A DNA stretch of 64,000 nucleotides, taken from IMG/VR virus record IMGVR_UViG_3300001848_000349, positions 481 through 64,480 of that record, one strand, 5' to 3'. The notes below the pieces were generated by a model. That model made no database searches. It saw only the letters and a list, made by a program, of their open reading frames with translations, and was not told where the DNA came from. The translations under genes and the position numbers were made by a program. Of the stretch, positions 235 to 33,808 are shown in pieces (position 1 is the stretch's first letter; each line of letters starts with the position of its first letter). The DNA is from a virus.

Positions 235-242
235 TATTTATA
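235..242 (-). promoter_or_regulatory. T4-type late promoter TATAAATA for gp13, overlapping the cpeT stop codon
   Basis: tatttata at 235-242 on the + strand. Confidence 0.8.
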
Positions 243-681: not shown

Positions 682-694
682 TTCACCCTCCAAT

Positions 695-723: not shown

Positions 724-945
724 TCATTCTACTACTTCTGTTTCAGAAACTGGAGTTTCCTCAGCAGGTGCTTCTGCTGTTTCTTCTTGAGGATCAAGGA
801 TCTGAAGAGTTTCCAGACCACCTAGAAGTTTGGTTTTATACTCCTTAGCTCTTTCTAGTTCACCTTCTAATTTGGTAATTTGCTCAGTAACATTTTTAAG
901 TTGAGCATTAAAGTTTTCACGTAATGTAGCAGTATCAGTTGTCAT
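724..945 (-). CDS. Small coiled-coil hypothetical protein with acidic tail (73 aa)
   Basis: ORF track frame; ATG at 945 preceded by CAGGAG is the more likely start; heptad pattern LKNVTEQITKLEGELERAKEY. Confidence 0.75.
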   Translation of the reverse strand: MTTDTATLRENFNAQLKNVTEQITKLEGELERAKEYKTKLLGGLETLQILDPQEETAEAPAEETPVSETEVVE

Positions 946-991
946 TTGTCGAATCTCCTGTTGTATAAAGCTGAATGGGGGATACATAATT

Positions 992-998
992 TATTTAT
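992..998 (-). promoter_or_regulatory. Late promoter ATAAATA
   Basis: tatttat in the intergenic gap upstream of the 73-aa gene. Confidence 0.6.
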
Positions 999-1007
999 GT
1001 TGTTATT

Positions 1008-1286
1008 TTAAGGCGTAGTAGAGTTACCCGTACCTAATCCTAGTATAGCAGCAAGTTGTTGTTTCTGTTCTAATGTAAGATTTGCTAAAGGATCTGGTTC
1101 TGGTTCTGGTGGAGCTGGTGGATTGTATTCATATTGATTTGGGTATTCTTCTAAAACAAGATGTACAGGATGTACATCCATATAAGTGTCATAAGATTCA
1201 ATCAGATCAGTATTCTCATCATCAACTAAAATTCTACCAATACAAGTATCATCTTCTTTTAATACATAAAATGTTCTTACTGTCAT
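1008..1286 (-). CDS. Small acidic protein directly after the giant fibre; possible tail-fibre assembly chaperone
   Basis: 92-aa ORF with a strong AGGAGG RBS; function inferred from position only. Confidence 0.55.
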   Translation of the reverse strand: MTVRTFYVLKEDDTCIGRILVDDENTDLIESYDTYMDVHPVHLVLEEYPNQYEYNPPAPPEPEPDPLANLTLEQKQQLAAILGLGTGNSTTP

Positions 1287-1297
1287 AAATCCTCCTA

Positions 1298-10200: not shown

Positions 10201-13200
10201 AAGATTGACCACTGAATGCTGCTGTTCCAGAAGTACCAGCAGTTGTGACTTCATATAACTCAAGACCTACATTAATTAGTTCTCCGACTGTGTAACTTTG
10301 ATTAGCAGACCAAGCAATTTCTCCAACATTAATATTTACAGTTGGAGCAACAGAATATCCACTACCAATGTTTGTCATGGTAATGGAAGAAATAGCAGTG
10401 CCAACTACAGTAGCAGTTGCTGTTGCTTGTACTCCACCTCCTTGATCTGGAGCAGAAATAACTACAGATGGTGTTCTGTATTGATAGATATCACCACCAG
10501 TTGCTCTAACGATTGAGTATACTACACCAAACGATGAGGATGTAATTTGACCAATAGCACCAGTAGCACTTCCAGTTACTAATCTTCCAGTTGTAAATAC
10601 GGTTCCAATATTTGGAGCATATGATAAGTATTGTGAATCAACATCATTATTAAGAATGTAAGAAACAGTACCAGTAGCAATACTAATTCCAGTATTTCCA
10701 CTACCAGCAGATGTGATTGTTAATGGAACTTCATCAATTACATTCTCTGGCGATGAAGCAAGTTGAATGTAATTAGGAGCTTTCAGAATAATATAATAGG
10801 TATTTCCTTCTACAATAGGACCAGCATTTGTTGCTGGTGGAGTAGCAGCTGAACTTGTAATAGTAACAATTTGACCACTTGAGAATCCTGTTTTAGGCGT
10901 ATAGATTTGATTGTTATCTACATCAATATCAGCATCGGATACGATGTCATTGAGTCTTGTTACCTGTACGGCAATATCACCAGCATTTAATCCTTCTAGA
11001 GCAAGTCTTTGATTAGTGCTTCCTACAGTATAAACTTTGAATGGTCTGATAGGTGGAATTTGATCTAGGTTGATCTTACCATCATTACCAAGTTCTACCA
11101 GAGCATTTGGAATTGGATTGTTTGAATATGGTTTACCGAAGTATGGACCAAGGTTATTGGTAACGAAGTCTTTAACCGCTTTCTGTGTTGGTAGTTTTTG
11201 GTTGGTAGCAGCAGCACCACCCATTGTTGGTGAAACATCAAATCCAGTAATGATTAGATCTCCACCACGAATACGTAAGAATTCAATTTCAGAAATCGAT
11301 ACCTGACCAGTAAAGTAAATGTTACCAGTACGGTTTTGCATTTTAACGGTTAGACCAACTTTAAAGTCACCAGCTTCATCAGTACCAGAAGCATATACTC
11401 TACCGTAACGTTGTGAAACCTGTTCGTTTTCTTCTTTCTTTTGACCACCATTTTCTGGTAGACCGTAATAATCAGTACCAGAACCAATGTATTCAAATGA
11501 GTGACCCGAGGAGTTAATAATAGAAGGTCTGTATAGTCTGATTGTCTTACCAATCAACTCAGATGTGTTTAGGTTAACTCTTTGACCAGTAGTATTATTT
11601 CTAAGGAGTAGAGCATCGTTGAATTCAACTCTAGCAGATACTTGACCAGTACCACCTACAGTAGCTCCAGTAACTACAGTGACGTAGTATTCAATACCAG
11701 ATACTACATTGCTATAACCATCGATCTTCATTACGAAGTTTTCAACTGGTTTTCTACCTAGTCCATTGATCTTGAATACAGTTTTACCAGCAGAAGTTGT
11801 AGCGATTTCTCCGATAGTACCAATATCAAATGGGTATGGATCTTTTCTGTATCCTACAGCACGTAGAGCATAAGTACCAAAGTTTGAAGCAGAGTTGGTA
11901 ACAGAAGCATATCCACCAGATTCAGCAAGAATACCATCTTGACAGAAGATACAGAATACAGATACCAACTGACAGTATCCATCATTGTTGACTAGGTATC
12001 CTGTACCACCTTGAGAAATGATGGTGAAGGCGTTAGCAACCATCGACTTACCTTGTGGAGCAAGTTTTGCTTTGCCATCTTCTCTTAGTCCTGGGCGAGG
12101 AACGTTGATTTGTTTGATCTTAGATCCATCAACTTCACAACCACCGCCACCTAAGAATGAAATAATAGAACAGTTTTGGATGTAAGGTGATACCTCAATA
12201 ATATCGTTGGCATTAATCATTCTGCCACGAATTACAGGACGGTTGCTGGCATCAATCATTGTGCCAGAACCTTGTACAACTGTAGGATTATAAAGAGTTC
12301 CTGGGTTTATAATAGGCGAATAAGAATTTTGTGCTACAATATCAGGTAATCCATTTCCATTTAATACAGAAGATAGAATATCAAAAATAGTTGTGATAGT
12401 AGATACAACGTTAGCACATTCTGGATATGAAGAATCAACAGTGATGAAATCATCAGTAAATGGTCTTTGTGTTCCTTTAAAATATGCCCCAGAGAAAATA
12501 CCAGGAATATTTTGTGATCTGTAAACAGTTACGTTATAATTTGTACCATATGTTGGTGATGGTAGTGGAGCTCCAGATTGTTCGAGAACTAAATCTAAAA
12601 TACCCCACAATGAAGTAATTGTTGATTGTATATTAGCACAAGATGCTGGATCTGTATTTGATCCAGTAGAAGGATCTGCTAAGATAGTTAAATCTTTATA
12701 AGCAGTTTCTGATGTGTATGTTCCAGTACTTGGGAGAGTATTTGTTACAGCTTGAAGAACTAAATTCTTAGCATATTCAAAAGCGTAACGGGTCTTGACA
12801 ACTTGATCATTAACGTAAATAACAGCACCAGAAGAATTGAGATATGATTTAGCTGCCTGTATACTACCAGAGTTACCACCAAGGATTAAATCTTTAATCC
12901 AAGCAGTCATATTGAGTTGAATATCTCTCTTACACTTAGGTTCGTTTGGAATATTAATAAGAGGATATTGATTATTGGCAGCACCAAGAGCTTCTTCAGC
13001 AATATATTTGAAGTTCTTAGCAATTAAAGTAGCAGCATCAATCTTAGTTCCACCAGATTTATTGGTAATAATATCAATAAAGATTTGGAATAAAGAATTG
13101 ATAGAAGATTCAACGAATGAGCACTGTGGATAACCAGCAGGATCCAATAGATTTGAATTTGTTACATAGTTTGAGGTAGCAAATTGCTTAGTATATTGTG

Positions 13201-16200
13201 TGTTAGAACCATTGATATACCAATTTCTCATAGCAAGAACTGCTAAATCTTTAGCTTTCTTGAATGTTTCGATACTTTGAATTAACTGATTACCAATGCT
13301 ATCTAAGTGACCAGCAGCATCTCTATAATAAGTAGCAGCTCTAATAGTCTCGGAGTTTCCACCATACCTTAAATCATGAATAAGAGCATCTAATACATAT
13401 CCAATATCTCTCTTACATGTAGCATTATTGTATTGTGAAACAAGTTCAAGATAACCAGTTGATGGAGTAAGAGTAGTTAGATAAGGATATCTGTCTTCAA
13501 TATATCCTACTGCTTCATCAGCAATGAATGTCTTGTTAGCAGCAATACTATTAGCAGCATCAAACCATGGAGCACCTACATTGCTGTAGGTGAAGTACAG
13601 AGTTGCTGAAGAAGTAGAAACACTAGCATTAAATGCTGTAGCAGTTAAAGATTGTGATCTTCCTAAGGTTACTGTATTATTGGTTCTGTTAATTCCAATT
13701 ACGTAAGCATAGGTATTGCCATTTGTATATCTAAATTGATTGGCAGATACTCTCATTCCAAGAACAACACCATCAGTATTTGGTAGAGTAACTACATTAT
13801 TGTTGTTTACTGTGGTACAATTTCTAATTTCAAAGTTCCAATTTCTAGCAGCAGCAACAGAAAGATGTTTAGCATACTCATAAATGTGTAGAGTTTTTGC
13901 TAGTTCGTTATTGACATAGGTTACGTTTCCTGTAGCACCAGAAATATAAGCATCAGCAGCAGTTGTGATACCTGTGTTACCACCTAGAATTGTATCTTTT
14001 TGTACTGCTCTTAGAATAAAACGAAGATCTCTCTTACATTTTGTTATGCTAGGAATTGAAGTTGATGGATATTGATTTTCTCCAGCAGCAAGAGCTTCTT
14101 CAATAATGAACTTCTCATTAATAGCAATTTGATTGGCAGCATCTAAGAATCTATTTGAAGCATTTCCTGATAGAATATCAACAATTAAATCAAATCTATT
14201 TGTAATGTCAGAAGCTACGTTAGTACAATATGGTATATTTGTATCTTCAATTACGAATGGATCTTGTACATAATCTAAATCAGCATACTGTTTTACATAG
14301 TATTGCTTTTGAGGAAACTCTTTCCAGTTTCTCATAGCAAGAATACATAGATCTCTTGTCTTTCTGAAAGCAGATAGAGATTGAATTAACTGACCATCAA
14401 TAAATGTGATTGGACCATTGCCACCAGTTTTGTAGTTGTTAGCATAAGTAATGCTATTTTTGTTTGATCCTAGTGTGATATCATTAATCACAGCATCAAT
14501 CATGTACTTGATGTCTCTAATACACTTCTGTTCGTTTAGAGAATAAGTGCCTCTCGAAACTGTAATTGAATTTAATGCTGTTAAATTACCAGCAGTAACA
14601 GTTGTAGTTACAATAGAAACTAGAGTTGTAATATTAGAAGCAACGTTAGCACATGATCTTACATCATAGTTATCGTTAGTTACAGCATCAGGAGTAATTG
14701 TAAAGTCTCTGTAAAGCAATTGATTTCTCATGGCATCAATCATGAGATCTCTAGCTTTGTTGAATGCTGTTACTGATTGATTTTCTTCTCCAGATAATCC
14801 GTTTGTAATTGGATTTCCTTCTTGGAAATAATAACGGGCAGCATTAATTGTACGCCAGTTAGATCCGTCGTAAACATCATCAGCGACGGCATCTACAATG
14901 TAACCTAGGTCTCTAGCACAAATAGATTCACCAGGATTGAATACTCCAGTATTTACTGTTGATTGATCTAGAGATAGAAGATTACCAGCAGTAAGTGTTG
15001 AATTGATGAACGTTGATAGAGTATCTAAAGCAGCCTGAACATCAGTACAAGAAGCAGCATTACCAGATTGAGATACTGGGATGTTACCACCACCTCCACC
15101 ATAATTAGCAGGACCAGAAGTTAATGTTAAATCTTTAGTATAAAGTTGATTAGTAACTGCTTTCTTCATCATGGTGTTTGCCATGGCAAAAGCAGTAACC
15201 GAAGGACCTTCTTCTCCAAGTAATCCATTTGTTAATGGGGAAGAAACATTAGTGAAGTATTGGGTTACAAAATCACGAGAATATTTGTTTCCTTTTGTGA
15301 AAAGATCAAGTGAAACAGCATCAGTGAAGAATCCAATATCACGCTTACACTTTAATTGATTTGGTGATGGTGATCCTTGACTTGAAGCAGCAAGGAATTG
15401 TGCTGCTGTAGAACCACCTAGATTACCAGCAGTGATAGTTGAGGTAACCGTAGCAGTTAATGTATCTACAAATGTTCTTACGTTAGCACAAGAAATATCA
15501 CTTACGTTTGAACCAGTTAAAGGATCAGCAGTAATTGTTTTATCTTTAAAATAAAGTTGGTTTGTGATGGCACCTTTGATTACATCTCTTGCTTTATTGA
15601 AAGCAATGTTTGAAGGTAGTTGCTCTCCATTTAATCCAGCACTAATCCAAGTAGTACCATCTGGTGTGAAGTAATAAGTTAAGAATTTTCTGACGTTGTA
15701 GTTACCACCTTGCTTGAGATCTTTCTCAATGGCATCTACAAAGTAACCTACATCACGCTTACACTTAGTTTCTCCAGGTGTAATTGTGGCAGATACTTCA
15801 GCAGGTAGTCCTGTTAAAGTACCAGCATTAATTACAGAAGTTACAATTGTTGTTAATGTATCAACAGCAGTTCTTACGTTAGCACATGATGTTTCATCAT
15901 TATTTGAGTTTGTTGTTGGGTCAGCAGTGATTGTAAAGTCTTTTGTATAAAGTTGGTTTGTAATTGCCAACTTCATAATATCCCTTGCTTTATTGAAAGC
16001 AACAATTGATTGTGCTTCTTCTCCTAAAAGACCGTTTGAAATTGGAGAACCATTATTAAAGTATTGTTGTACGAATTTTCTTGTGTAAACGTTTCCACTT
16101 CCTTGGCAGATATCTAAAGAAATAGCATCAATAAAATAACCGATGTCACGCTTACACTTGGATTCGCCAGCAGGAATTGTACCTGTTGTTTCTGCTGGTA

Positions 16201-19200
16201 GACCATTAACATTTCCTGCTGTAATAACTGATGTAACTACAGATGCTAAAGTATCAATAGCAGTTCTTACGTTAGCACAAGAATTTGGATTAGTGTTTGA
16301 TGGACTACCAGAAGAAGGAGATGGGTCTGCTGTGATTGTTAAATCTTTGATTGTTAACTGGTTTGTGATAGCAGACTTCATCAAGTCACGAGCTTTATTG
16401 AAAGCAACGTTTGATTGTGCTTCTTCTCCTACAAGACCATTTGAAATAGGATTACCATTATTAAAATACTGTAGGATAAACTTACGAGTATATCTGTTAC
16501 CACCACCTTGAGCGATATCTAGAGAAAGAGCATCAATAAAGTAACCTAAGTCACGCTTACATTTTGTAGGACTTGGGTTTACAAATGTTGGGTATTGAAC
16601 GGCAATTTGAGCAAATGCTGTATCAATAATTTCTTGTCTGTTTAATTGAATTAAACGATACGAATCTTTGAATCTTGATGTTGAATTTGATTGTGTATCA
16701 CCAGGATAGTAGAAGTCTGGATACTGTACACCAATTTCAGCAGCTGCTCTATCAATAATTTCTTGTCTGTTCTGCTGAATTAAACGATACGAATCTTTAA
16801 ATCTATTTACAGCATTGCTGGCAGAATCACCAGGAATTACAAAGTTATTTCCCCAAGCAGTTTCGCTGTACTGAGCAGAGATTTCAGCAACAGCGCGGTC
16901 AATGATTTCTTGCTTGTTGTTGTAAACTAGATTGGCGGCATCTTGGAATCTATCATTATATCCAGAAACTTTTGCTGCTAAACTGTTTAAATTGCCAGCA
17001 GTGATTGGACCAGTAATTACAGTGGTTAGGGTATCAATCGTAGTCTGTACATCAGCACAAGAAGCAGCATTACCAGATTGAGATACTGGAATGTTACCAC
17101 CAGATCCACCATAGGTAGCAGGTCCAGCAGTTAAAGTTAGATCTTTTGTATAAAGTTGATTAGTAATCGCCTTCTTCATCATGTCACGAGCCATGTTGAA
17201 AGCAACTACAGATTGTGCTTCTTCTCCTACCAATCCATTGCTTAATGGAGTTGTGGCATTAGTGAAGTATGATTGAACAAATTTTCTGCTGTAAGTATTT
17301 CCACCAAGGAAAACATCTAAAGCAACAGCATCAATTAAGAATCCTAAATCTCTCTTACACTTAGATTCACCAGCAGGAATGCTTCCTGTAGTTTCTGATG
17401 GAAGACCTGTGAGATTACCAGCGGTAATTCTATCAGTAATTAACGTTGTTAAGTTTGTAATTGCTGTTTGAACATTGGCACAAGATGCTGGATTAGTATT
17501 GGATCCAGTATCTGGATCAGCAGTTACAGTCAAATCTTTGATTGCTAATTGGTTAGCAATCGCTTTTTTCATTTCATCACGGGCTTTATTGAAAGCAGCA
17601 ATCGATTGTGCTTCTTCTCCTACTAAACCGTTGCTGAGTGGAGTTGTAGCATTAGTGAAGTATTGTTGAATAAACTTACGTGAATATACATTTCCTCCAC
17701 CTTGAGCAATATCAAGAGAAACAGCATCAATAAAGTAACCTAAGTCACGCTTACACTTGGTTCCATTCGTATCACCAGGAATAGAACCACCAGAAGCAGC
17801 ATAAGCAGTATTGATAATACTTGTTTTATTTTGTTGAATCAGACGATAAGCATCTTTAAATCTTGAAGTTGCTGTAGTTTGAGAATCACCAGGATAATAA
17901 AAATCTGGATATTGAATAGCAATTTCAGCAGCTGCTCTATCAATAATTTCTTGTTTGTTTTGCTTGATTAATCTATAAGCATCAAAGAATCTGCTACGTG
18001 GATTTGTCTGAACATCGCCAGGGAAGTAGAAGTCTGGATATTGTACAGCAATTTCAGCAGCTGCTGTATCAACAATCTCTTCTTTGTTTTGTTGAATTAA
18101 ACGATAACCATCAAAGAATCTGCTATTAGCATTAGTTTGGTCATCTCCAGGGAAGTAGAAATCAGGATACTGTACTCCAACTTCAGCAAGAGCTTTCTCA
18201 ATGATATATGTACGATTCTTTTTGATGAGATTTGAAGCATCCTTAAATCTCATTGAGTCATCTAGATATACATCTGGACGAACAACAATATTTTCTACAA
18301 CACCTTTTACTGCTTTGCTTATGTAAATTCTAGAAGTTTCTGTTGCAAAAGAAGTAATATAAGTGTTATCTTGAATATTAGCACCACTAATTAATTGACC
18401 AACTTTTAAATTAGTGAAACTTGATACTTGTAAATATGCTGGATAAGCATCAACAGCACTATTTGTAACTACGTTTTTATTGAACGTAGGTAGAGGATAA
18501 GCAAATCCTTTGTAAGTATCTTTTAACCAACCAGTTACTTCCTGAGCAATAAAATCTTTATTTGATTCAATTAAATTAGCAGCATCGAAATAACGATATG
18601 CTACGTTATTAGTTACAATTTTTTGAATTAATGTGAATAAAGAATTTAGAGCAGATGCTACGTTAGTACATTCTGGGAATTCTGGATAATCTGTAGTTCT
18701 AGGAACAAGGTTATCAAACCATAGAGGAGTGAATGAAGTTTGTCCTTCAGTTAATTTTAAATTAGTTGGTCTTTGACCAGTTCCAAAAGAATGATCCGAA
18801 CCAGATTGACCAGTAGCATATTTCCAAATAATGAATTGAGTTGGAGAAACTACTTCCTTAATGTAGTAATCTGATTCTACTTCATTGCTTTCATTATATG
18901 TGTAAACTCTCATTTTTGGAACTAATCCAAGAGTAGAAGCAACTTCTACTACATCACTTCCTGCTTTGAAAGTACAATTAATTTTTGTCTTCCAGTTCCT
19001 CATGGCAAGGACACAGTAATCTCTTGCTAATTGGAAAGCATAGCTAGATTGTCTGTGCTGATTATCAATTAGATATAAAGAGTTATTAGCATTATTAATA
19101 TAAGTTTTTGCTGCTTCAATACTAAGAGCATTTCCTCCATATGGAAGATCAGCAATTACGGCATTAATAACATGTTTAATATCTCTCTTACACTTGTTCT

Positions 19201-21925: not shown

Positions 21926-21974
21926 TTGTTATTAACTCCGTAGTATTAATAAAATAGTAGTGCTCTATTAGTAG

Positions 21975-21982
21975 TATTTATA
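21975..21982 (-). promoter_or_regulatory. T4-type late promoter TATAAATA for the giant fibre gene
   Basis: Perfect consensus overlapping the upstream TAA; GGAG RBS before the ATG at 21925. Confidence 0.85.
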
Positions 21983-22535
21983 GGGAAAACGTAGAGGAAA
22001 CTATCTCTAAATTACAAACCCATTTAACTGCTTGGGAAGGATTTACTGGATTTCCGACACAAGTAAAACTTACTTGGTTGCCAGAAAAATATGGTGATAC
22101 TGACCACGTTATATTTTGTGGAAAGGATTCGATATAAATTGTTTGAAGATTAGAAATTTCTGTAATTACATCATTTGAACATAATAAACATGATTCGTAA
22201 TTTATAGAATATTTCTTATCAGTATTTTGTCTATTGATTGCCACAATATTTGCCTTCAAAAAATTAATAGAATTTGAAGGAAGTTGAGGATATAAACTGG
22301 TGGCATAATTACCAAGAGTTAAATTCGTTGATTGAGTATCCAAAGAAGTTGTGGCAATTAAAATATAATTATTCTTCTTCGAATTATCTAAATCATATGA
22401 ATGATTTACTTCAACCGAAGTAATATTTTTCAGATCAATATTTCTGCCATCGTTTGCCTCTAAAAAAGAAACAACAATTCCATCATTATCTTCTACGCTG
22501 AACCCTTTGCCAGCAATGAAATTTTTTCTAGACAT
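21978..22535 (-). CDS. Probable virion/fibre-associated structural protein (185 aa)
   Basis: ORF between two fibre genes; beta-rich composition; no family recognised. Confidence 0.6.
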   Translation of the reverse strand: MSRKNFIAGKGFSVEDNDGIVVSFLEANDGRNIDLKNITSVEVNHSYDLDNSKKNNYILIATTSLDTQSTNLTLGNYATSLYPQLPSNSINFLKANIVAINRQNTDKKYSINYESCLLCSNDVITEISNLQTIYIESFPQNITWSVSPYFSGNQVSFTCVGNPVNPSQAVKWVCNLEIVSSTFSL

Positions 22536-22540
22536 CTAAT

Positions 22541-25500
22541 TTATTTTCTGATTGAGGTCTTACTTATTTTTGAAGTAAATTGTGTGGCAGTTCCAGTGTA
22601 TCCTGGTACTTTGCTAACTGTTATATTTAGTACACCAGCAGTTACAGCCATAGAATACTCAACTATTTTTTGTGATGTGAACACATCATTACTTTCTGAG
22701 AAATAAGCATTGTTTGAATCATCAACTATACATGTTACTTCAGTGATTTCATAGTCTCCGCCATTTGAAGAAGTTTGAATCAAGACTTTAGCAGATCTAT
22801 ATTCACTTGTAGTAAATATTGGTATAGTAACGTCAGTAGTAAATGTTAATGAAACTTCGCTCTTTAATGTAAATTCTTTTAGATTTACAAATGTACCAGT
22901 GTTGTCTACAAAGGTTTCAAATGATCCATCATTTGAATAATCAATTTCTATTGCTCCTAAGGAGCTACCTTGCTTGGTAAATCTTAAGAAACTTACTCCA
23001 TTAACATTAAGAGCAATATTACTTGTTGTAGTTGAAAGAATAGGAGTTGTTGTGAAATCAACTTTAAAGATTCCTTGACTTAAAGATAGATTTGTATTCT
23101 GTAACTCAACAATAGGAGAACTATTATAGTTATTGATTGTGAGTAAATTACCAGCAGTTCTGGTAGAATTCATTGTTACAGTATCGCCGTTCAATGTCAA
23201 TACAGAATAGTTTGATCCGTCCTGACTGAATACTAAATCATACTTCTTGCTAGCACTGAATTTATTCGAGATAGTTCTTACTGTTTCAAGTTCTAATACA
23301 GTTCCAGATAATTGAACTGAATTTGTACCATTATTGTAGAAGTAGAAAATATTTTCATTAGCGCCTGGTGAAGTTTCGGCAAGTAGATATGTGTTGCCAT
23401 CAACGTCTCTTACGCCACCAATAGAACCCCACTGAGATCCATCATATCCTTCAAATAAAGTTCTTGAGGTATTAAATCTGATTAATCCAGTTACTACTTC
23501 AGTTGAAGGTCTTTGAGCTTCAGATCCTAGAGGAACTCTTAAACCAGTATTGGTATCAATTTTTACAATTCCATTTGTAGATGGTTTGATATTGATACCA
23601 GAACCAGATACATCAGTTACTGTAAAGTTAATTGTTTGATTACCAAATGTTGCTGTTACAGAATCTCCAATAGCATAACCAGATCCACCTTGAGCAATAA
23701 CAATGTTTGAAGGAAGTAGCTTACCACCTGATACAATTAGATTTACTCTACCACCAGAACCAGATCCACCATTGACTACTCTGTTATTGTAAGTTCCATT
23801 AGCAACTTGAGCAACATTAATATCACTTGTGGTTAATCTTACAAGTACACCAAATGAATTGCTTACATAAGAAGTATCTTGAATGAGTTGGTTGCCAGAT
23901 AAAGTGATACCTTTCAATACTTTTGAATTCTTGGAATATAGATCACCAATACTATTGAGATCACCCGATGCTATATCCAATCCAATGGTTTGAGTGTAAT
24001 CAGAAGTTCTAGCAACAATAGCATTATTACCAGTCAATGATCCATTGAATACAAAGTCAGATGATGTATCATTTACATTATAATTTAAATCTCCACTGTT
24101 TGATTTTATAGCATTTGTGGTAAATTCTAGGTTATTTACAGTTAACTTATTATTCGTAGCATCGTGATATAAAGTTCCGCCATCAACTTTAAGATCTCCC
24201 TGAACTTCTAAACCTACGTTTGTTGTCCAGTAATTAGAAGCAGCAGACCAAGTGATAGTTTTATTTGAGCTTGCTTTTAGTGTAATACCACCACCATTAG
24301 CTGTAGCATCGGTTGGAGTATCAATTGAACCAAGTTCAATATTAATATCATCGACTGTTACTACAGTTGAATTTAGAGTTGTTGTCGTTCCGTCAATAAT
24401 CAAGTTACCTTTGATTTGTACATCACCAGTATTGTTACCTACAACTCCTGGGTCAAGTACAATTAAACTGTTGGCAGAAGTAATTTGATTAGAAACAATT
24501 CTGATTTCTTCAATAGTAACTCCACCAGTTCCGTTACCTGTAATAGTGATGTCGCCATTTGTATCGGTATTGGTAATTGTATTTCCATTGATATTGATGT
24601 TATCAGCATAGAAGTTACCAACAACTGTCAATACAGATTCATCAGTTAATTTGCCAAAGTTTACATCGTTAAATGTTTCAACAACACCATTTCCATTTGC
24701 TAGGAAAGTAATGTTTCCATTTGTATTTGTAGAACTTAATGTGTTACTTGTAATTCTTAAGTTATCGGCATTGAACTGACCAGTTACAGTTAACGTGGCG
24801 TTAGTAACATTGAAGTTCTTAGCAGTTGTTGTTGATCCAGTTCCATTTGGTGTTAATACTATATTAGCGTTTGATCCAACAGAAGAAAGAACATTACCAG
24901 TAATCTTGAGCGTTTCAACAATAACTCCAGTGGTGTCAATAGAAGCTAATGTGCTTCCTGTCATTCTCAAGTTATTGGCATTAAGAGTTCCAGTGACAGT
25001 TAATGTTGAATTATTGACTGAAGTTCCAATATCAACGGCATTGATTGTAGTGGTCTTGCCAGTACCATTTGGAGAAAGAATGATATTACCGTTAGTGTTT
25101 GTTGAACTAATAGTATTTGTATTGACTGCTATATTTCCTAAAGTGGATGTTGATGTAACAGTAAGATTAGCACTGATGCTTACATCTTTTGTAGTCGTTG
25201 TCTTACCAGTACCATTAGGTGTTAATACAATATCTCCATTAGCAGTTGTTGATGAAAGAACGTTTGTATTAATCTTTAATGTTTCAATGATAACACCTGT
25301 AGTATCAATGGAAGTTAATGTACTTCCAGTCATTCTTAAGTTATTGGCGTTGAGAGTACCAGTAACAGTTAGGGTTGAGTTGTTTGGTCCAGTACCAATA
25401 TCAACAGCATTTATAGTTGTTACTTTTCCTGTACCATTCGGTGAGAGAATGATATTGCCATTAGTATTTGTTGAACTAATCGTGTTGGTATTGATTGCTA

Positions 25501-28500
25501 TATTTCCTAACGTAGAAGTACCAGTTGTAGTTAAGTTGGCACTAATGCTTACATCTTTTGTGGTTGTTGTCTTACCAGTTCCATTTGGTGTGATAACAAT
25601 ATCACCGTTAGTTGTTGTTGACGAAAGAACATTACCAGTAATCTTAAGAGTTTCAACAATAACACCTGTAGCATCAATAGAAGCAAGAGTGCTTCCAGTC
25701 ATTCTTAAGTTGTTAGCATTAAGAGTTCCAGTAACAGTTAATGTTGCCGATGTTACTCCAGATCCAATGTCAACAGAGTTTAATGTAGTTACTTTACCAG
25801 TACCATTAGCAGAAAGAATGATATTACCGTTAGTGTTTGTCGAACTAATAGTATTGGTATTGATTGAAAGGTTTCCTAGAGAAGATGTAGAAGTAACCGT
25901 TAAGTTGGCACTGATGCTTACATCTTTTGTGGTTGTTGTCTTACCACTACCATTCGGTGTAATAACAATATCTGAATTTGCTACTACAGATTGAAGAGCA
26001 TTACCAATGATTCTTAAATTCTCAACATTAATTCCAAGTGAATTTGTCGAAGTAATATCATTGGCATTTAAGAAAATATTGTCAACTGTTGTATCACCAA
26101 CAACAACTAATGATGATAAGTCTCCTGAATTACCGAAAGAAACATCATCTACTGTAATAATTTTTCCAGTGCCATTAGCATCTAAAATAATATCGCCATT
26201 TGTATTAGTAGAACTAATTGTATTGGCAACTATATTAATATTTCCTGCTTGTAAATTACTAAATGTAGCAATTCCTAATAAAGTATTACCATCAACTTTT
26301 AAATCTCCTTTTACTTGTAACAATCCAGTAGCATCACCAACAGCAGCTGGGTCAATAATAATTGTTGAGTTAGATGATGTGATTTGATTATCAGTAACTT
26401 TTAACGTTTCAATATTAACACCACCAGTTCCATTAGCATAAATTGTTAGATCACCATTGGTATTTGTTGTAGTAATAGTGTTTCCATTTAGATTAATATT
26501 ATCTGCTTGTAGATCACCATTTACAGTTACAGTAACATCTAGAGGAGTTGAAATATTTCCAAAGGTAGTATTGGCATTAAATTGCTCTAAGCTAGCATGT
26601 GTAATAGTATTACCAGTGCCAGCTTGAATTGTCATATCACCACTAGTACTTAATGTGCTAGTTCCTAACGTGAATGTATTAGCAATTAAAGTGCCAGTAA
26701 CAGTTAATGTTGAATTATTTGCTACTGTTCCAATATCTACATTATTAATTGTGGTTACTTTACCAGTACCATTTGGAGAAAGAATGATATTACCGTTAGT
26801 GTTTGTTGAACTAATTGTATTAGTAGCAACTCTTAAATTATCTAAGTTTGTTGTTCCAGTAATAGTAACAGTTCCAGAAATATCAGTGCTCTTAGTGATG
26901 TTTAGTTTACCAGTTCCGTTTGGAGATAATGTAATACTACCGTTTGTATTAGTAGCTAAAATTGTATTACCGTTAAAATTAAAGTTATCTAAGTTTGTTT
27001 CACCAATAACCGTTAAGATAGATTCATCAGATGTTTTACCAAAATTTACATCATTATAAGTTACTAATTTACCAGTGCCATTAGCAGCAATGATAATATC
27101 TGAATTAGTTTTTGTACCAGTAATTGTTGTGCTATTAATATTAAGATAATCAGCAGTAAATGTACCGAATACACTTACATCAGCAATATTAGCAAAAGTT
27201 AATTCTTCGGCACTAATGAAAGTATTTGTGTAATTACTTAAAGTGATAACAGTTCCATTAATACCAGAAACTGTAGTTCCAGATGGAATACTAGTAAATG
27301 AAGTATTTGATTCTACGTCATTTCCATTAGAAATACCAACTGCTGAAACTACATTAACTCTTAATGGATCGTAGGTTGTGAGATTTCCAGTTACTCCTGT
27401 TGATAATGTAGACGAAATGTTTATCTTTTGAGTAATCGTAGCAACAGTTAAAGTTAAATCAGATCCAGTAGCACCAATGCTTGCTACAGGAACTGTGATA
27501 GTTTCATTGACAGCAAAAGAAGCACCGCCATCATCTACAACAACAGTAGAAGCGGCACCAGTAGCATCAATTGTAATTGTGAAGGCAGCACCGACTCCAG
27601 AAGCAGATCCACTTAAATTTGTTACAGAATACACTCCAGCAGTTCTAGCAGGATCAGCACTACTTGTAGTTACTGTAGCAATGTATCCACTAATAATTGA
27701 AGTAATGTACGTTGTAGATGGAATTGAAGCAGAAACAAATCTATAACCAACTCCAATTAAAGATAAATCATCTGTAGATAAGAAATAGTTATTACCAGAA
27801 GTTCCAGATAATGTAATTAAATCATATAATGATGTAGCAGTAGAAGTGGCATAAAGAACACCGAATTTGTTTGTTCCTGTAGTTGTTGTAGTACCACTAA
27901 TTAAAGTATTACCAGCAACTGTTAAAGTTCCACCAATGTAAACATCTTTTACAATTCCAGCACCACCAGCAACATATAAAGCACCAGTTAATGTGTCAGT
28001 AGCATTACTTGTTGAATTAATTCTAACGATAGGTATAGTGTTACTAATTTCTAACGATAATGGACTATTGACATCAGTAGGAGCAGTTCTACCAAGTGTC
28101 ATTCTTTGAACACCACCAGTATAGAATTCTAAAGTATTATTAGATTCATTTGGACTTCTTTCTGGAATAATGTATGTTTGGTTGTCTACAGATCTTACAC
28201 CACCAAGAGAACCCCAGGCAGTTCCGTTATATCCTTCGAAGTATAATCCAGTGGTATTAAATCTAACCATACCAGCTACACCAGTTGGTTGTTGTGATGT
28301 TAAACCAGCTGGTAATAGCATAGCATTTGTGCCACTTATCTGTACATAACCAGTTCCATTTGGTGTTAAGAACAGATTTCCGTTAGTATTTTCTGTGGAA
28401 AGTGTATTAGTAGTTAATCCTAAGTTTCCAATGTATGCTTTTCTGCTGAGATAGATATCTCTCCATTTCTGAGAACTTGTACCAATATCATAGGTAGCAG

Positions 28501-31500
28501 TTACATCAGGAATAATTGTCGAGTTAATATCAGCATTAAATACAATGTTATCAGTGTTTAAATCACCAAATGTGATTGTACCACCAGTTCCTTGACCAGC
28601 TCTAAATGTAATATCTCCATTAACTGTAAGGTTTCCAGAAACAGTTGTATTCTTATGGAGAGTAATAGATTCAGCACCAGTTGAAGTTGATAATGTGATA
28701 TATGGATTTGTGCTTTCCTTAATTACAAATGACGAAGCGTTGTTGTTTAGAATCGTTAGAGAAGTAGCAGCTGCTGAAGTATCAACTGTTCCGCCTTGAA
28801 CAGTTAGAGTTCCTGAAATTACTGTATTACCTGTTGTAGAAGCAACCGTGAATTTGTTGACGGGAGTTCCAGCACCATCATTAATAAAGAAGTCTTGTGA
28901 AGTTCCACCCTTGAAGATAAAATCTCCAGTTCCATTTGGATCAATTGTAATATCACCATTAGCATTTTCCGTTGAAATTGTATTGGCAGTTAATCCAATA
29001 TTTCCAATAAATGCTTTTGTTGATAGGTATAGATTAGACCACTTATTAGTTGCTGAACCAAAATCATAAGCAGCAGATGAAGATGGAATAAAAGATGATC
29101 CAATATAAGAATTGAATATTGATGTATCAGCAGTAGCATCACCAAATGTTAGTGTTCCTCCAGCACCACCTTTAAAGTTTACACTTCCATCTACAGTAAG
29201 AGTTCCATTAAATGTAGTGTTCTTTGTAACAGTAATTGCTTCAGAACCAGTGGTTGTTGTTACAGTTACATAAGCATTAGATCCTTCTTTAATGGCAAAA
29301 GAAGAAGCATTGTTATTGATAATTGATAATGTTGTAGCAGCAGCAGAAACATTTACTGTTCCACCAGAGATTGTGGCATTACCAGAAATAGTTGTGTCAC
29401 CTGATGATGAAAGAACATTAAACTTAGTAGTAGTTCCATCGTTGATGACAAAGTTTTGAGAAGCTCCACCAGTAAACTGTAGATTTCCAGTTCCATTAGG
29501 ATCTAGAATAATATTTCCGTTTGTGTTGGTAGAAGCAATTGTGTTGTCAGTTACATCAACATTTAAATTGCCGATATAAGCACCACCAGAAAGATAAAGA
29601 TCTTTCCATTTTAATGTTGCTGTACCAAAGTCTCTAGTACCAGTAGTAGAAGGTACGAAATCACTAGCAACTCTAGCATTTACGGTTACTGTATCACTTG
29701 TAGCATCACCTATTGTTGTGTTGCCGTTTACTGTTAAGTTGCTGGTAATCGTTACATTAGTGCTAAAGGTAGTGTCTTTATGTAAGGTAATCGATTCTGT
29801 GCCAGTTGTGCTGTTCAGTGTTACATAAGAATTTGATCCTTGTTTGATCGTAAATGCTGAGGCATTATTTGTAATAATACCAACATTGGTTGCTACTGCT
29901 GATACATCAACTGTACCTCCAGAAACTGTAGCATTTCCTGAAACGTTGATAAATCCAGAGATTGTTGTGTCACCTGTTGTTGATAATACATTAAATTTAG
30001 TTACAGGAGTTCCAGCACCATCATTGATTGTGAAGTTTTGAGAAGCACCACCTTTATAGATAAAGCTACCAGTTCCATTAGGATCAATTGTGATGTTTCC
30101 GTTTGTATTGGTAGAAGAGATTACGTTGGTATCTAATAGTAAGTTAGCAAAATAACCACTAGTGCCAGCGTATACTGTTCTCCATTTTTGTGATGAGGAA
30201 CCTAAGTCATAAGTATTATTGAGATCAGGTATAAAGCTTGAATTAACATCAGCATTAAAAACGATATTGTCAGTATTGAGATCACCTAAAGTAATTGTAC
30301 CAGGGGTTGAACTACCAGCTCTAAATGTAATATCTCCATCAACAGTTAAAGTACCATTGACAAGAGTATTTTTGTGAAGAGTAATTGATTCAGAACCAGT
30401 AGTGGTATTTACAGTAATGTAAGAATTGGCACCTTGTTTTACTGTAAGTGCTGAAGCATTATTTGTAATGATTGGAATATTAGTTGCTACTGCCGATACA
30501 TCTACAGTACCACCAGAGATTGTGGCATTACCAGAAACGTTAACAAATCCTGAGATTGTAGTGTCACCTGATGTTGAAAGAACATTAAATTTAGTTGTAG
30601 TTCCATCATTGACTGTGAAGTTTTGGGAAGCTCCACCTGTAATTACTACACTTCCAGTACCGTTTGGATCAAATACGATGTTTCCATTGGTATTTGTGGA
30701 AGAAATAGTATTACCAGTTGTCCTAATATTTCCAGCATAGATGTTCGATGCTGCCCAAATATCTTTCCATTTGAGAGATGTACTACCTAAATCGTAAGTA
30801 TTGGTTGTTAGAGGTAATACGTTGGAACTTACTTCAGCATTAAATGTGATGCTATCTGTGTTAGCATCACCCAAAGTAATTGATCCAGTTGATCCATTAC
30901 CAGCTCTAAAGGTAATATCTCCATCAACAATTAAATTGCCATTAATATTTGTATTCTTATGAAGAGTGATGGATTCTGAACCACTTGTAGTATTTAATGT
31001 TACATAAGAATTAGCACCTTGTTTAAAGGTAAAAGCAGTAGCATTATTGTTGATGATAGAAACATTAGTAGCAACTGCTGAAGTATCTACAGTACCACCT
31101 TTTACTGTTAATGTTCCTTCAGTTACTGTATTGCCAGATGTAGTAGCAACAGTAAATTTATTAACAGGTGTTGGAGTTGTACCATCGTTAATAACAAAAC
31201 TTTGTGAAGCACCGCCAGTAAACTGGAAATTTCCAGTTCCGTTAGGATCAATAATGATGTTACCATTGGTATTTGTAGATGATACAGTATTTCCATCAAC
31301 TCTTAAATTATCTAAATTGGTTTGACCAATTACAGTAAGAATTGACTCATCCGCTAATGTACCTAGGTTGACATCATTTACTGTTTCTACGACACCAGTT
31401 CCATTAGGAGTTAAGGTAATATTACCATTAGTATCAGTGGAACTGAGAACGTTACCATCAATTCTTAAATTATCAGCATTAAACTGTCCAATAACAGTTA

Positions 31501-33808
31501 CCGTTGATAGATCTCCTAATGATCCAAAAGTAATATCACCATTCGTATTGATATTTCCAATTACATTGTATGATCCAGTAACATACAAATCACTATCAAT
31601 TGTTACTGAATTGGAACCAGCTGGAGAAAGAGTAATTCCGCCAGTTGTGGTTTCAATATTATTATTATTAAAATCTAGATTACCTACAGTTATATTTGTA
31701 GGAGTAATGACTGTTGATGTTACGTTATCAGTTACTGTTAAATTGGAAAGACTTGAAATACTAAATGCCTGTGATCCAAAGTTTAATGTTCCCTGTTTTT
31801 GATCAACTTCAAATACATCTCCAATCTTTACATTACCTCTTTGATCAATTGTGACATATGAAATATCACCACCATTGACTTTAATAATTTCATTTGCTTT
31901 AATGGTGTTTGATTGATCTTGTGAAAAATCTTTTCCTGATCCTACAAAATTTAAATTGAATGAGATCAAACGAAGTCTAGTTCCTACACCATCTGCTTTT
32001 ACTCCGTAGGTTCCAAACTCTACAGCAGATGAAATAGATCTCATTTCAGCACCAAACTGTTGGTAATCTGCTAAAATAATTCTTGAAGCCGTTGCTACTG
32101 TTGATGTATCTCCAGCATTTCTAATTCTAATATCTTGAACCGCTACTGAGTCATCAACAATAATTTTTGAGTTATTTGATCCATCAAAATGAAGCATTAA
32201 TGTAGCAAAAGTATCACTAGCATAAGCAAATGATGCTGGAGTGAATGTTGTATCGTATCTTCCGATACCCTGACTAATTCTAAGTTCATCAATATATCCA
32301 GTTAAACCATACAATCCGTTAAAATTAGCACCGATATTTACTGTGCTTTGTGGATATGTATTGTTATCAGTATAAGGTGAACCTTGTAAAGTACCATTAA
32401 CAAATAATCTAGTAGTATTAGATTTTCTTGATAAGGCAATATGATACCATGTATTAGTGCTTAATGTAGTAGTACCTACAATTTTATCAGCACCTGTTGT
32501 GTAGTATCTTACTACATTACCACTGATATAAATTACTGGTTGTGTATCTCCAGCAACAGTTCTTTGATCAAATAAAACTTGATCTACATTGTTTACGTTT
32601 CTTCGTACCCAAAAATCTACAGTGAAATCTCCAGTTCCATATTCAAAATCTGGACTTGAAGCATATGTAATATAATCCGATGTTCCTGGTAAATATAATG
32701 ATGCTGTACCAAATTTGTATTGAGCAGTTGATAAAGCAGCATTATTAATAACTGTAGCAACTTTTGCTGTTCTATCAGCTGGATCCGAGAATATTCCTGT
32801 ACCTTTGTTAGTTAAGATAACGTAGTTACCAGTGGCAGTTGAATCAATTGTTCCAGAAGCAACTAGGTTTCCAGAAACATCATAATATTTGATGATATTT
32901 CCAGCAGCAATAGATCCAGTAACACCAGATAATCTAAGTCTTGTTTTTCCTTGATTTGCTAAACCTAAAGTTCCAGACTCAGCAAGAATACCATATTGAG
33001 CAAAATATGAAAAACAATTAATCCATTCTACTCTTGCTCCATTTGTCATTCGGAGAGAAGTAGCATTTGGACATATTAAAGTAACTTCATTACATAAAAT
33101 AGCTGGTTCTAATGTAGTATATTGAACTACAGAACCATCAACTAAAATACCACACCCAGCATCACCAGAAGCAAATCCATAAGGATCTGATGAAGAAGTA
33201 ACAGATCCTTTGTTTAATACAGTAATTCTTTGAAGGTAAGGACTTCTTTGTAATGTTGTGCTATTTGTAGCAAATCTAAATGCCCATCCTGTGTTTAGAA
33301 GTGGGTTGAAGAACATATCTCCAACTGTAAGATCTTCTACTCCAGTATCTCCATTGAGTAAAAAACAATCTTTTGTATTAGTTGCTGGAGTTGGTACAAT
33401 CTTTGTTGAACGAATAGTTGTACCTTTAACTGTTACACCAGCTGGAATAGTAAGAGGAAAAATCTCTTGGAAAGTACCAGGACCAATATGAATTGTGTCA
33501 CCAAAAGATGCCTGTGAAAGAGCATACTTTACAGTTCTAAAAGCAACGTTTCTAGTCCTTCCTGGATTTTTTCTATATCCAGCAGAAGTAGGATCGTTAT
33601 CAATTGAGTCAACACCGTTTGTACTAACATACCAAACAGTCCCTTCATATGAAGAGACTGTTCCATCAAGATAATTAATTGCTCTAGCAAGAGTATTTGG
33701 TAATGGCGTGTTAAGCGAAGAAATATCGCCTAAATCAGCTCCTATTAAATTAACTTGTTGACGTTGCTGTTCTAAGGTAAAATTCTTAGCTACATTTCTA
33801 ACTGCCAT
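22541..33808 (-). CDS. Long tail-fibre-like virion protein (3755 aa) with beta-helix, LamG/ConA-like lectin domain and many ISSTNTNGNIxLxPNGTG repeats
   Basis: WYVSTNG...GDTIHIGPG beta-helix start; FGTASLYL...GDFTVDFWV...WYHIAL...GYIDELRIS LamG motif; two RFNT...FEGY.G..WGS.GG modules; C-terminal YRSAKVLIQ domain. Confidence 0.85.
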   Translation of the reverse strand: MAVRNVAKNFTLEQQRQQVNLIGADLGDISSLNTPLPNTLARAINYLDGTVSSYEGTVWYVSTNGVDSIDNDPTSAGYRKNPGRTRNVAFRTVKYALSQASFGDTIHIGPGTFQEIFPLTIPAGVTVKGTTIRSTKIVPTPATNTKDCFLLNGDTGVEDLTVGDMFFNPLLNTGWAFRFATNSTTLQRSPYLQRITVLNKGSVTSSSDPYGFASGDAGCGILVDGSVVQYTTLEPAILCNEVTLICPNATSLRMTNGARVEWINCFSYFAQYGILAESGTLGLANQGKTRLRLSGVTGSIAAGNIIKYYDVSGNLVASGTIDSTATGNYVILTNKGTGIFSDPADRTAKVATVINNAALSTAQYKFGTASLYLPGTSDYITYASSPDFEYGTGDFTVDFWVRRNVNNVDQVLFDQRTVAGDTQPVIYISGNVVRYYTTGADKIVGTTTLSTNTWYHIALSRKSNTTRLFVNGTLQGSPYTDNNTYPQSTVNIGANFNGLYGLTGYIDELRISQGIGRYDTTFTPASFAYASDTFATLMLHFDGSNNSKIIVDDSVAVQDIRIRNAGDTSTVATASRIILADYQQFGAEMRSISSAVEFGTYGVKADGVGTRLRLISFNLNFVGSGKDFSQDQSNTIKANEIIKVNGGDISYVTIDQRGNVKIGDVFEVDQKQGTLNFGSQAFSISSLSNLTVTDNVTSTVITPTNITVGNLDFNNNNIETTTGGITLSPAGSNSVTIDSDLYVTGSYNVIGNINTNGDITFGSLGDLSTVTVIGQFNADNLRIDGNVLSSTDTNGNITLTPNGTGVVETVNDVNLGTLADESILTVIGQTNLDNLRVDGNTVSSTNTNGNIIIDPNGTGNFQFTGGASQSFVINDGTTPTPVNKFTVATTSGNTVTEGTLTVKGGTVDTSAVATNVSIINNNATAFTFKQGANSYVTLNTTSGSESITLHKNTNINGNLIVDGDITFRAGNGSTGSITLGDANTDSITFNAEVSSNVLPLTTNTYDLGSTSLKWKDIWAASNIYAGNIRTTGNTISSTNTNGNIVFDPNGTGSVVITGGASQNFTVNDGTTTKFNVLSTSGDTTISGFVNVSGNATISGGTVDVSAVATNIPIITNNASALTVKQGANSYITVNTTTGSESITLHKNTLVNGTLTVDGDITFRAGSSTPGTITLGDLNTDNIVFNADVNSSFIPDLNNTYDLGSSSQKWRTVYAGTSGYFANLLLDTNVISSTNTNGNITIDPNGTGSFIYKGGASQNFTINDGAGTPVTKFNVLSTTGDTTISGFINVSGNATVSGGTVDVSAVATNVGIITNNASAFTIKQGSNSYVTLNSTTGTESITLHKDTTFSTNVTITSNLTVNGNTTIGDATSDTVTVNARVASDFVPSTTGTRDFGTATLKWKDLYLSGGAYIGNLNVDVTDNTIASTNTNGNIILDPNGTGNLQFTGGASQNFVINDGTTTKFNVLSSSGDTTISGNATISGGTVNVSAAATTLSIINNNASSFAIKEGSNAYVTVTTTTGSEAITVTKNTTFNGTLTVDGSVNFKGGAGGTLTFGDATADTSIFNSYIGSSFIPSSSAAYDFGSATNKWSNLYLSTKAFIGNIGLTANTISTENANGDITIDPNGTGDFIFKGGTSQDFFINDGAGTPVNKFTVASTTGNTVISGTLTVQGGTVDTSAAATSLTILNNNASSFVIKESTNPYITLSTSTGAESITLHKNTTVSGNLTVNGDITFRAGQGTGGTITFGDLNTDNIVFNADINSTIIPDVTATYDIGTSSQKWRDIYLSRKAYIGNLGLTTNTLSTENTNGNLFLTPNGTGYVQISGTNAMLLPAGLTSQQPTGVAGMVRFNTTGLYFEGYNGTAWGSLGGVRSVDNQTYIIPERSPNESNNTLEFYTGGVQRMTLGRTAPTDVNSPLSLEISNTIPIVRINSTSNATDTLTGALYVAGGAGIVKDVYIGGTLTVAGNTLISGTTTTTGTNKFGVLYATSTATSLYDLITLSGTSGNNYFLSTDDLSLIGVGYRFVSASIPSTTYITSIISGYIATVTTSSADPARTAGVYSVTNLSGSASGVGAAFTITIDATGAASTVVVDDGGASFAVNETITVPVASIGATGSDLTLTVATITQKINISSTLSTGVTGNLTTYDPLRVNVVSAVGISNGNDVESNTSFTSIPSGTTVSGINGTVITLSNYTNTFISAEELTFANIADVSVFGTFTADYLNINSTTITGTKTNSDIIIAANGTGKLVTYNDVNFGKTSDESILTVIGETNLDNFNFNGNTILATNTNGSITLSPNGTGKLNITKSTDISGTVTITGTTNLDNLRVATNTISSTNTNGNIILSPNGTGKVTTINNVDIGTVANNSTLTVTGTLIANTFTLGTSTLSTSGDMTIQAGTGNTITHASLEQFNANTTFGNISTPLDVTVTVNGDLQADNINLNGNTITTTNTNGDLTIYANGTGGVNIETLKVTDNQITSSNSTIIIDPAAVGDATGLLQVKGDLKVDGNTLLGIATFSNLQAGNINIVANTISSTNTNGDIILDANGTGKIITVDDVSFGNSGDLSSLVVVGDTTVDNIFLNANDITSTNSLGINVENLRIIGNALQSVVANSDIVITPNGSGKTTTTKDVSISANLTVTSTSSLGNLSINTNTISSTNTNGNIILSANGTGKVTTLNSVDIGSGVTSATLTVTGTLNANNLRMTGSTLASIDATGVIVETLKITGNVLSSTTTNGDIVITPNGTGKTTTTKDVSISANLTTTGTSTLGNIAINTNTISSTNTNGNIILSPNGTGKVTTINAVDIGTGPNNSTLTVTGTLNANNLRMTGSTLTSIDTTGVIIETLKINTNVLSSTTANGDIVLTPNGTGKTTTTKDVSISANLTVTSTSTLGNIAVNTNTISSTNTNGNIILSPNGTGKTTTINAVDIGTSVNNSTLTVTGTLNANNLRMTGSTLASIDTTGVIVETLKITGNVLSSVGSNANIVLTPNGTGSTTTAKNFNVTNATLTVTGQFNADNLRITSNTLSSTNTNGNITFLANGNGVVETFNDVNFGKLTDESVLTVVGNFYADNININGNTITNTDTNGDITITGNGTGGVTIEEIRIVSNQITSANSLIVLDPGVVGNNTGDVQIKGNLIIDGTTTTLNSTVVTVDDINIELGSIDTPTDATANGGGITLKASSNKTITWSAASNYWTTNVGLEVQGDLKVDGGTLYHDATNNKLTVNNLEFTTNAIKSNSGDLNYNVNDTSSDFVFNGSLTGNNAIVARTSDYTQTIGLDIASGDLNSIGDLYSKNSKVLKGITLSGNQLIQDTSYVSNSFGVLVRLTTSDINVAQVANGTYNNRVVNGGSGSGGRVNLIVSGGKLLPSNIVIAQGGSGYAIGDSVTATFGNQTINFTVTDVSGSGINIKPSTNGIVKIDTNTGLRVPLGSEAQRPSTEVVTGLIRFNTSRTLFEGYDGSQWGSIGGVRDVDGNTYLLAETSPGANENIFYFYNNGTNSVQLSGTVLELETVRTISNKFSASKKYDLVFSQDGSNYSVLTLNGDTVTMNSTRTAGNLLTINNYNSSPIVELQNTNLSLSQGIFKVDFTTTPILSTTTSNIALNVNGVSFLRFTKQGSSLGAIEIDYSNDGSFETFVDNTGTFVNLKEFTLKSEVSLTFTTDVTIPIFTTSEYRSAKVLIQTSSNGGDYEITEVTCIVDDSNNAYFSESNDVFTSQKIVEYSMAVTAGVLNITVSKVPGYTGTATQFTSKISKTSIRK
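24800..25960 (-). repeat. Three tandem 369-nt (123-aa) units in the 3755-aa fibre
   Basis: gtcatt (RMTG) anchors at 24960, 25329 and 25698, exactly 369 nt apart. Confidence 0.9.
28400..31250 (-). repeat. About five ~190-195-aa units in the 3755-aa fibre
   Basis: agctctaaa (FRAG) anchors at 30902, 30317 and 28598 (585 nt, then 3x573 nt); recurrent GSESITLHK / TYDLG...KW / SQNF.INDG motifs. Confidence 0.8.

Follow-up and report, generated by a model that had tools for sequence, protein, structure and literature searches.

Marine cyanomyoviruses have huge and almost uncharacterised receptor-binding proteins, which decide which of the main primary producers of the ocean are killed. Here we describe two large proteins, P0001 and P0002, and the interrupted domain common to them, in a 64,000-nucleotide stretch of viral DNA (the window; positions 481 to 64,480 of IMG/VR record IMGVR_UViG_3300001848_000349). 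The source record is a 71.5-kb linear metagenomic virus fragment, 37% complete by CheckV, and the window holds a T4-like cyanomyovirus module for baseplate and fibres, encoded entirely on the minus strand. P0001, a giant fibre protein of 6,875 amino acids, is encoded by a single open frame (window 1298–21925, minus strand; phrog_5342, tail fiber), and P0002, of 3,755 amino acids, by another (22541–33808, minus strand). Between these two genes sits that of a 185-amino-acid virion structural protein (21978–22535, minus strand; phrog_5449). The orthologues of P0001 are S-PM2p091, about half its length, and PHM1_097 (‘tail fiber protein’, T4-GC 830/513), and those of P0002 are S-PM2p089 and PHM1_095 (annotated ‘gp7’); orthologues in P-HM1 and P-HM2 also carry the annotation ‘YapH protein’. 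Both S-PM2 (p089-p090-p091) and P-HM1 (PHM1_095-096-097) keep this set of three genes, for an orthologue of P0002, a small virion protein and a giant fibre.

An earlier reading of the letters without database searches (the sequence-only reading) had proposed that the two proteins are built on one motif scaffold. In P0001 we located YVS at residue 240, KTIKRA at 260, GEYYEDNPISIP at 283, AFVF at 349–352 (window 20870–20881), SPYIQ at 3246–3250 (window 12176–12190), GCEVDGS at 3262, GILAESG at 3331 and SASNFGTY at 3345. The counterparts in P0002 are YVS at 60, GTFQEIFPLTIP at 111, AFRF at 176, SPYLQ at 189, GILVDGS at 220, GILAESG at 273 and SAVEFGTY at 594. All motifs stand where they had been placed except KT[IV]K.A in P0002, where the sequence reads RTVKYA. 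The proposed spacings were also borne out: AF.F is followed by SPY.Q after 9 residues in P0002 and after 2,893 in P0001 (about 2,890 had been claimed), whereas GILAESG adjoins S...FGTY in P0001 (7 residues) and is parted from it in P0002 by 314 residues (about 310 claimed) that contain a Laminin_G_3 (LamG) domain. Direct BLASTP similarity between the two proteins is weak yet collinear (25% identity; E = 1e-3 for the front part and 3e-5 for the back).

Profile comparisons put the likeness beyond chance and resolve this scaffold into one domain, hereafter the chassis. A search with P0002 45–300 against 1.84 billion representatives returned 738 matches, 311 of them with E < 1e-30, nearly all of which are unbroken and lie at differing places within large proteins. 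A 396-position profile built from 30 uninterrupted P0002-type domains, empty at the GILAESG site, matches P0001 in three ordered, collinear pieces with a whole-protein E of 5.7e-25: residues 228–351 fall on profile positions 20–143 (E = 1.2e-15), 3235–3351 on 139–253 and 3474–3552 on 282–358 (E = 7.2e-6). P0002 is matched in two pieces, residues 52–305 on positions 25–263 and 581–729 on 247–395 (E = 1.1e-40). Profile positions 120–165 are covered in one piece by 181 of 232 targets, and when uninterrupted domains of the P0002 and P0001 types are compared with HHalign, the probability is 99.3% (E = 2.7e-20, 232 columns). The front half of P0001 was found at 60 loci in IMG/VR, and in relatives at about 48% identity (L037-L060-type) the front and back halves are 16 residues apart. 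The parent domain is thus uninterrupted in homologues at both the site that splits P0001 (site 1) and the site that splits P0002 (site 2), and its pieces are collinear on one profile, as in a discontinuous domain.

Mapped onto the window, the first part of the P0001 chassis comprises residues 228–355 (window 20861–21244, minus strand, as are all features of both genes given here) and is followed by the site-1 insert of about 2,880 amino acids (residues 356–3234; 12224–20860), which is missing from uninterrupted relatives. This insert consists of a β-rich region with a CBM5/12-like motif and then 13 helical units marked by C.RD; it holds 13 copies of C.RD and 13 of C[AST][NDF][VI]. The second part of the chassis runs from SPYIQ to FGTY (residues 3235–3352; 11870–12223), a further insert occupies residues 3353–3473 (11507–11869), and the third part is the H.FEYIGSG ... 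GDFKVG block (residues 3474–3552; 11270–11506). In P0002 the first part (residues 52–287; 32948–33655) is uninterrupted across site 1, the site-2 insert of 297 amino acids (residues 288–584; 32057–32947) is made of a small β unit and a LamG jelly-roll (residues 346–555; 32144–32773), and the second part (residues 585–729; 31622–32056) completes the domain.

On this mapping there are at least three insertion sites: site 1 at profile positions of about 125–143, site 2 after GILAESG at ~248, and site 3 at ~253–282. The third, represented by P0001 3353–3473 in the gap between profile positions 253 and 282 (~95 amino acids beyond the uninterrupted profile), had not been recognised in the sequence-only reading.

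Relatives were surveyed by profile mapping, strict motif regular expressions over 150 representatives having proved too narrow. Such a survey of cyanophage homologues had been suggested as a check on the original proposal, and it revealed discrete insert classes at sites 1 and 2. Site-1 inserts form a graded series of 16, 332–432, 832–1195, 1882–1986, 2,521–2,719 and 2,884 residues with 0–13 C.RD units, and the 2,884-residue insert of the window is the longest in the survey. Cultured isolate phages have 830–1790 amino acids at this site, and six independent IMG/VR contigs, with N-terminal halves ~87% identical, have inserts of 2,521–2,719 amino acids with 11–12 units. Some long site-1 inserts have no C.RD, and the cargo at this site is therefore not uniform. 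At site 2, 139 representatives fall into classes of 0–6 residues (32), 60–99 (39), 280–319 (48), 340–379 (19) and 499 (1); the classes of 290, 365 and 499 residues contain one or two LamG domains, and the 80-residue class has no Pfam match.

Site 3 holds a further 184–193 residues with one helical unit in many P0001 orthologues, and a further 173–320 residues, several with one helical unit, in relatives with an empty site 1. Columns from the site-3 cargo of these relatives (alignment A4) match the site-1 helical units of P0001 with E values of 1e-9 to 1e-5. The same helical module therefore occurs at different sites in different relatives, and the units would seem to be autonomous modules. Rare further insert sites lie at profile positions ~127–132 and 165, and in one relative (L048) a helical unit seemingly precedes the AF.F-like strand directly instead of following it.

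The fold of the chassis is clearest in P0002. An AlphaFold2 model of residues 40–732, made on a 70-row alignment, has a predicted local distance difference test (pLDDT) score of 93.3 and a predicted template modelling (TM) score of 0.80, and is a right-handed β-helix. A Foldseek ranking of the whole model mixed β-helix and jelly-roll matches (TM score ~0.2), and a range-resolved re-alignment was used. Solved β-helices align to model residues 18–639 with only ~250 aligned positions, skipping 307–516. The best match is the rhamnogalacturonan lyase 5olr (5olr_C; Z = 20.9, root-mean-square deviation 3.2, 256 aligned positions over model residues 18–637); others at Z of 19–20 are the tailspikes 7chu, 6c72 and 6w4q (19.4), together with 8tne (19.3) and 9ozd (19.1), and the matches include Geobacillus virus E2 ORF18, Fri1 gp49, CBA120 TSP2, pectin methylesterases and RbmB. 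LamG, pentraxin and AbnA-domain-4 jelly-rolls match only model residues 307–516 (AbnA domain 4, PAPP-A LamG and PTX3; Z of 17–19), and Pfam Laminin_G_3 (PF13385) scores 70.4 bits at P0002 375–512 against a cutoff of 27.6. Because β-helices align on both sides of 307–516 and jelly-rolls inside it, the lectin is a loop insertion across which the helix is continuous. The P0002 domain is accordingly modelled as a right-handed parallel β-helix of pectin-lyase-like fold, and its insert as an autonomous LamG or concanavalin A-like jelly-roll domain that is predicted to bind carbohydrate.

For P0001, residues 195–360 and 3236–3575 were predicted as two separate chains, each with its own alignment (A3 and A4). 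The interface score ipSAE was 0.82 (0.81–0.83) for this pair and 0.00 for all three controls; the mark is reached by 58 of 80 solved complexes and by 2 of 110 mismatched pairs, counts that serve as only a rough calibration for chains given their own alignments. At least 80% of contacts were common to the runs, with a partner pLDDT of at least 82, and pLDDT values for the prediction were 77–83. The predicted interface sets residues 3245–3267, the SPYIQ rung, against 321–334 and 342–355, the last strands before the insert. Independent folding of the two halves had been named as the outcome that would sink the original proposal; the halves are instead predicted to stack. A continuous helix would need just such contacts between the cut ends, and we take them as support, not proof. 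A β-helix fold may be expected for the P0001 domain, from homology to the P0002-type profile together with the two-chain prediction.

We favour, at a probability of roughly 0.85, the reading that both proteins contain one homologous, discontinuous β-helix that bears its inserts as side arms, that this chassis diversifies as inserts are gained, lost and expanded, and that it would serve in host recognition. The structural core of the sequence-only reading, a β-helix that diversifies by loop insertion, is supported by the profile, the relatives, the P0002 fold and the predicted stacking. Across cyanomyoviruses a small set of loops recurs, either vacant or occupied by cargo of differing kind and size, and it is from this that we infer diversification by gain, loss and expansion.

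The shared domain would be a right-handed parallel β-helix of about 330–390 residues. In P0002 the chain would leave the helix after GILAESG, form the small β unit and the LamG domain (297 amino acids) and re-enter to finish the helix. In P0001 it would exit just before the SPY.Q rung, build the ~2,880 amino acids of β-rich region and 13 helical units, re-enter for four or five rungs, exit again for ~100 amino acids and return to finish. The main line of each protein would pass from an N-terminal anchor through the β-helix to a distal fibre. As this line enters and leaves the β-helix at its ends, loop inserts would sit as side arms on a rigid stem, and they could turn a linear chain into a branched fibre, which we propose is the sole route by which one polypeptide could do so.

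The role that we propose is recognition, and possibly cleavage, of host-surface glycans: the stem resembles glycan-active β-helices and the cargo includes lectin-type modules. ‘Display platform’, the earlier description of the β-helix, would be a function that fits this anatomy.

Insertion domains in β-helices are known. In the tailspike LKA1gp49 of Pseudomonas phage LKA1, the helix comprises residues 181–283 and 371–675 and a β-barrel is inserted at 284–370 (PMC5701251). As in P0001 and P0002, a right-handed β-helix in a phage tail protein is interrupted in LKA1gp49 and related depolymerases (KP34gp57) by an autonomous domain that sits at its side, and LKA1gp49 also has jelly-roll carbohydrate modules in the same protein. 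Its insert, however, is ~87 amino acids at one site, whereas here inserts of 297 (LamG) and 2,884 amino acids (13 helical units) are distributed over at least three sites, the kind and site of the cargo vary among relatives, and no membership of the same sequence family was detected.

The passenger of the SPATE autotransporter Hbp is a β-helical stem with side domains d1–d5 that can be dispensed with or exchanged for foreign proteins (PMC4252983). Its use as a display platform follows the same principle as the earlier proposal for P0001 and P0002, with a likeness at the level of fold class. Hbp is secreted, whereas the proteins here belong to the virion and their inserts are far larger and nested; sequence searches with Pfam found no autotransporter translocator domain in the scanned parts of either protein.

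The helices of polysaccharide lyases and pectin methylesterases and the CBA120 TSP2-type tailspikes, the best structural matches of P0002, share only 10–14% sequence identity with it, and their Pfam families have no match in the chassis scans. The nearest counterparts are S-PM2p091/PHM1_097 and S-PM2p089/PHM1_095, which agree in gene order, in chassis and in the site of an insert.

Given LKA1gp49 and Hbp, we regard P0001 and P0002 as an extreme form of a known architecture and not as a new principle; a limited literature search found no description of an interrupted β-helix in cyanophages. What is new is the scale (an insert ~8 times the size of its host domain), the use of several sites and the exchange of cargo between them. 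The anatomy offers a rule for reading giant fibre genes, in which the pieces of chassis are located and the remainder is taken as cargo, and it would explain how a single chain can form a branched fibre. At a single loop of a ~350-residue domain, nature supplies inserts graded from 16 to 2,884 residues, a series suited to testing the folding of a discontinuous domain whose second half is synthesized thousands of residues behind the first. The anatomy also points to a naturally occurring scaffold on which proteins could be displayed at several sites, comparable to the engineered Hbp platform.

A different view of function is that the β-helix acts chiefly as a polysaccharide lyase or hydrolase, in the manner of tailspike depolymerases, and that its inserts are accessories that bind substrate or shape the groove, as in LKA1gp49. 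The best structural matches are indeed glycan-active (a polysaccharide lyase of family PL9, pectin methylesterases, RbmB and capsule depolymerases), the chassis has many conserved Asp, Arg, Glu and Asn columns, and the LamG and CBM5/12-like modules are carbohydrate binders. However, chassis scans gave no Pfam lyase or hydrolase match, no catalytic residues were identified, in work that did not include an examination aimed at them, and a helical array of 2,880 amino acids far exceeds what groove shaping would need. We consider an enzyme with accessory inserts possible but doubtful. It differs from our reading in function alone and does not conflict with the split-domain anatomy; the β-helix may itself be a glycan-binding or glycan-cutting domain.

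The anatomy would be overturned if the halves of P0001 were separate domains, left over from two β-helix copies or from a fusion, and several observations count against our reading. Beyond the weak direct BLASTP similarity, the second piece of P0001 (3235–3351) is weak when matched alone (E = 3e-4), and no Pfam β-helix family (Beta_helix, Pectate_lyase_3 or DUF1565) matches P0001 1–480 and 3150–3950 or P0002 1–720 at E up to 0.1. The packing of the halves is a two-chain prediction; a single-chain AlphaFold run on L048 residues 225–1130 (a 335-amino-acid insert with one helical unit; alignment A2) was unusable (pLDDT 40.8, predicted TM score 0.27). The pass of the two-chain prediction may also partly reflect the predictor’s memory of solved β-helices, because halves of split domains tend to pass.

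The register is ambiguous as well. Profile–profile alignment backs the earlier pairing of the two S...FGTY motifs and sets the AFRF strand of P0002 opposite P0001 3235–3241, that is, after the insert. The equation of AFVF with AFRF is therefore uncertain by one strand, and P0001 TFNFAFVFDD may represent a strand that the P0001 lineage has in addition; the site-1 insertion point, placed by the alignments at profile positions ~135–143, is unaffected.

Against separate domains, the three pieces of P0001 occupy consecutive, non-overlapping profile positions in order, neither half alone covers the whole domain profile, the halves lie only 16 residues apart in the ~48%-identity relatives, and they are predicted to stack exactly at the cut ends. 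We therefore hold two unconnected domains to be very unlikely, and retain one split β-helix.

Equally improbable, in our view, is that the extreme length of P0001 is an artefact of metagenome assembly, whether a repeat expansion or a chimeric join. The insert is repetitive and the record is an incomplete linear fragment, which leaves the exact repeat count open to assembly effects and is a point against our reading in that respect. However, the six independent contigs have inserts nearly as long, cultured phages have 830–1790 amino acids at the same place, and the frame is open over 20.6 kb.

Post-translational removal of the insert, by an intein-like reaction or by a protease, so as to leave an ordinary β-helix in the virion, is suggested only by the unusual size of the insert and was dropped as barely credible: no Hint, intein or protease family appears in Pfam scans of the insert, the conserved structural repeats of which it is made are retained by every orthologue, and the orthologous genes carry full-length annotations as virion structural or tail fibre proteins.

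The helical cargo resembles phycobiliproteins. Over the array (window 12224–19750; P0001 residues about 727–3234), matches to the Pfam family Phycobilisome (PF00502) reach 54.8 and 65.2 bits, and a single unit from a relative reaches 25.7 bits, all above the cutoff of 22.2. Among PDB sequences one unit touches only phycocyanin and allophycocyanin α subunits (CpcA, ApcA and ApcD), at their Cys-x-Arg-Asp bilin site (E of only 0.2–0.75), and the units retain Lys-Cys-x-Arg-Asp-x-Gly-Tyr, the signature of the helix to which bilin is attached in phycobiliproteins. It is conceivable, although we think it unlikely, that the chassis carries a branched array of phycobiliprotein-derived modules that might bind bilin or mimic antenna proteins on the outer face of the virion.

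A CpeT-like bilin-lyase gene (window 238–693, minus strand; phrog_488) lies directly downstream of P0001 on the same strand. No cpeT gene was found next to the fibre gene within 12–14 kb of the matched region, a span reaching about 5 kb past the end of the gene, in S-PM2 or P-HM1, which lowers the idea of a link between cpeT and the fibre.

Two CBM5/12-like tryptophan motifs occur in P0001, one within the site-1 insert at residues 440–463 (window 20537–20608) and one downstream of the chassis at about 3871–3903 (window about 10220–10310); with 25.5 and 16.3 bits, neither reaches the Pfam threshold of 26.2.

The remaining large genes of the module precede P0002 in transcription order, also on the minus strand. 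The first encodes a gp6-like wedge protein (52585–54384), followed by a 2,856-amino-acid protein (44009–52579), a gp8-like protein (42137–43960) and a 2,693-amino-acid protein (34017–42098). The 2,856- and 2,693-residue proteins belong to other PHROG families and do not bear the chassis; more broadly, the chassis profile found no copy in the other large open reading frames of the window (2,693, 2,856, 607, 599 and 185 amino acids; E of at least 0.03). Two chassis-bearing open reading frames are also present on the related contigs L018, L046, L053 and L055, and the paralogue pair is therefore common among these phages. Megablast of window 20500–22500 against phage records gave no match, in a record set that may not include close relatives.

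Within P0002 there is an antisense open frame of 399 amino acids (window 24795–25994, plus strand), probably a by-product of repetitive, low-GC coding sequence. The first ~50 residues of P0002 (residues 1–56; window 33640–33808) closely resemble the N terminus of the L048 protein (L048 9302–9440), which has a β-helix of the P0001 type. A shared attachment segment may have moved between paralogues.

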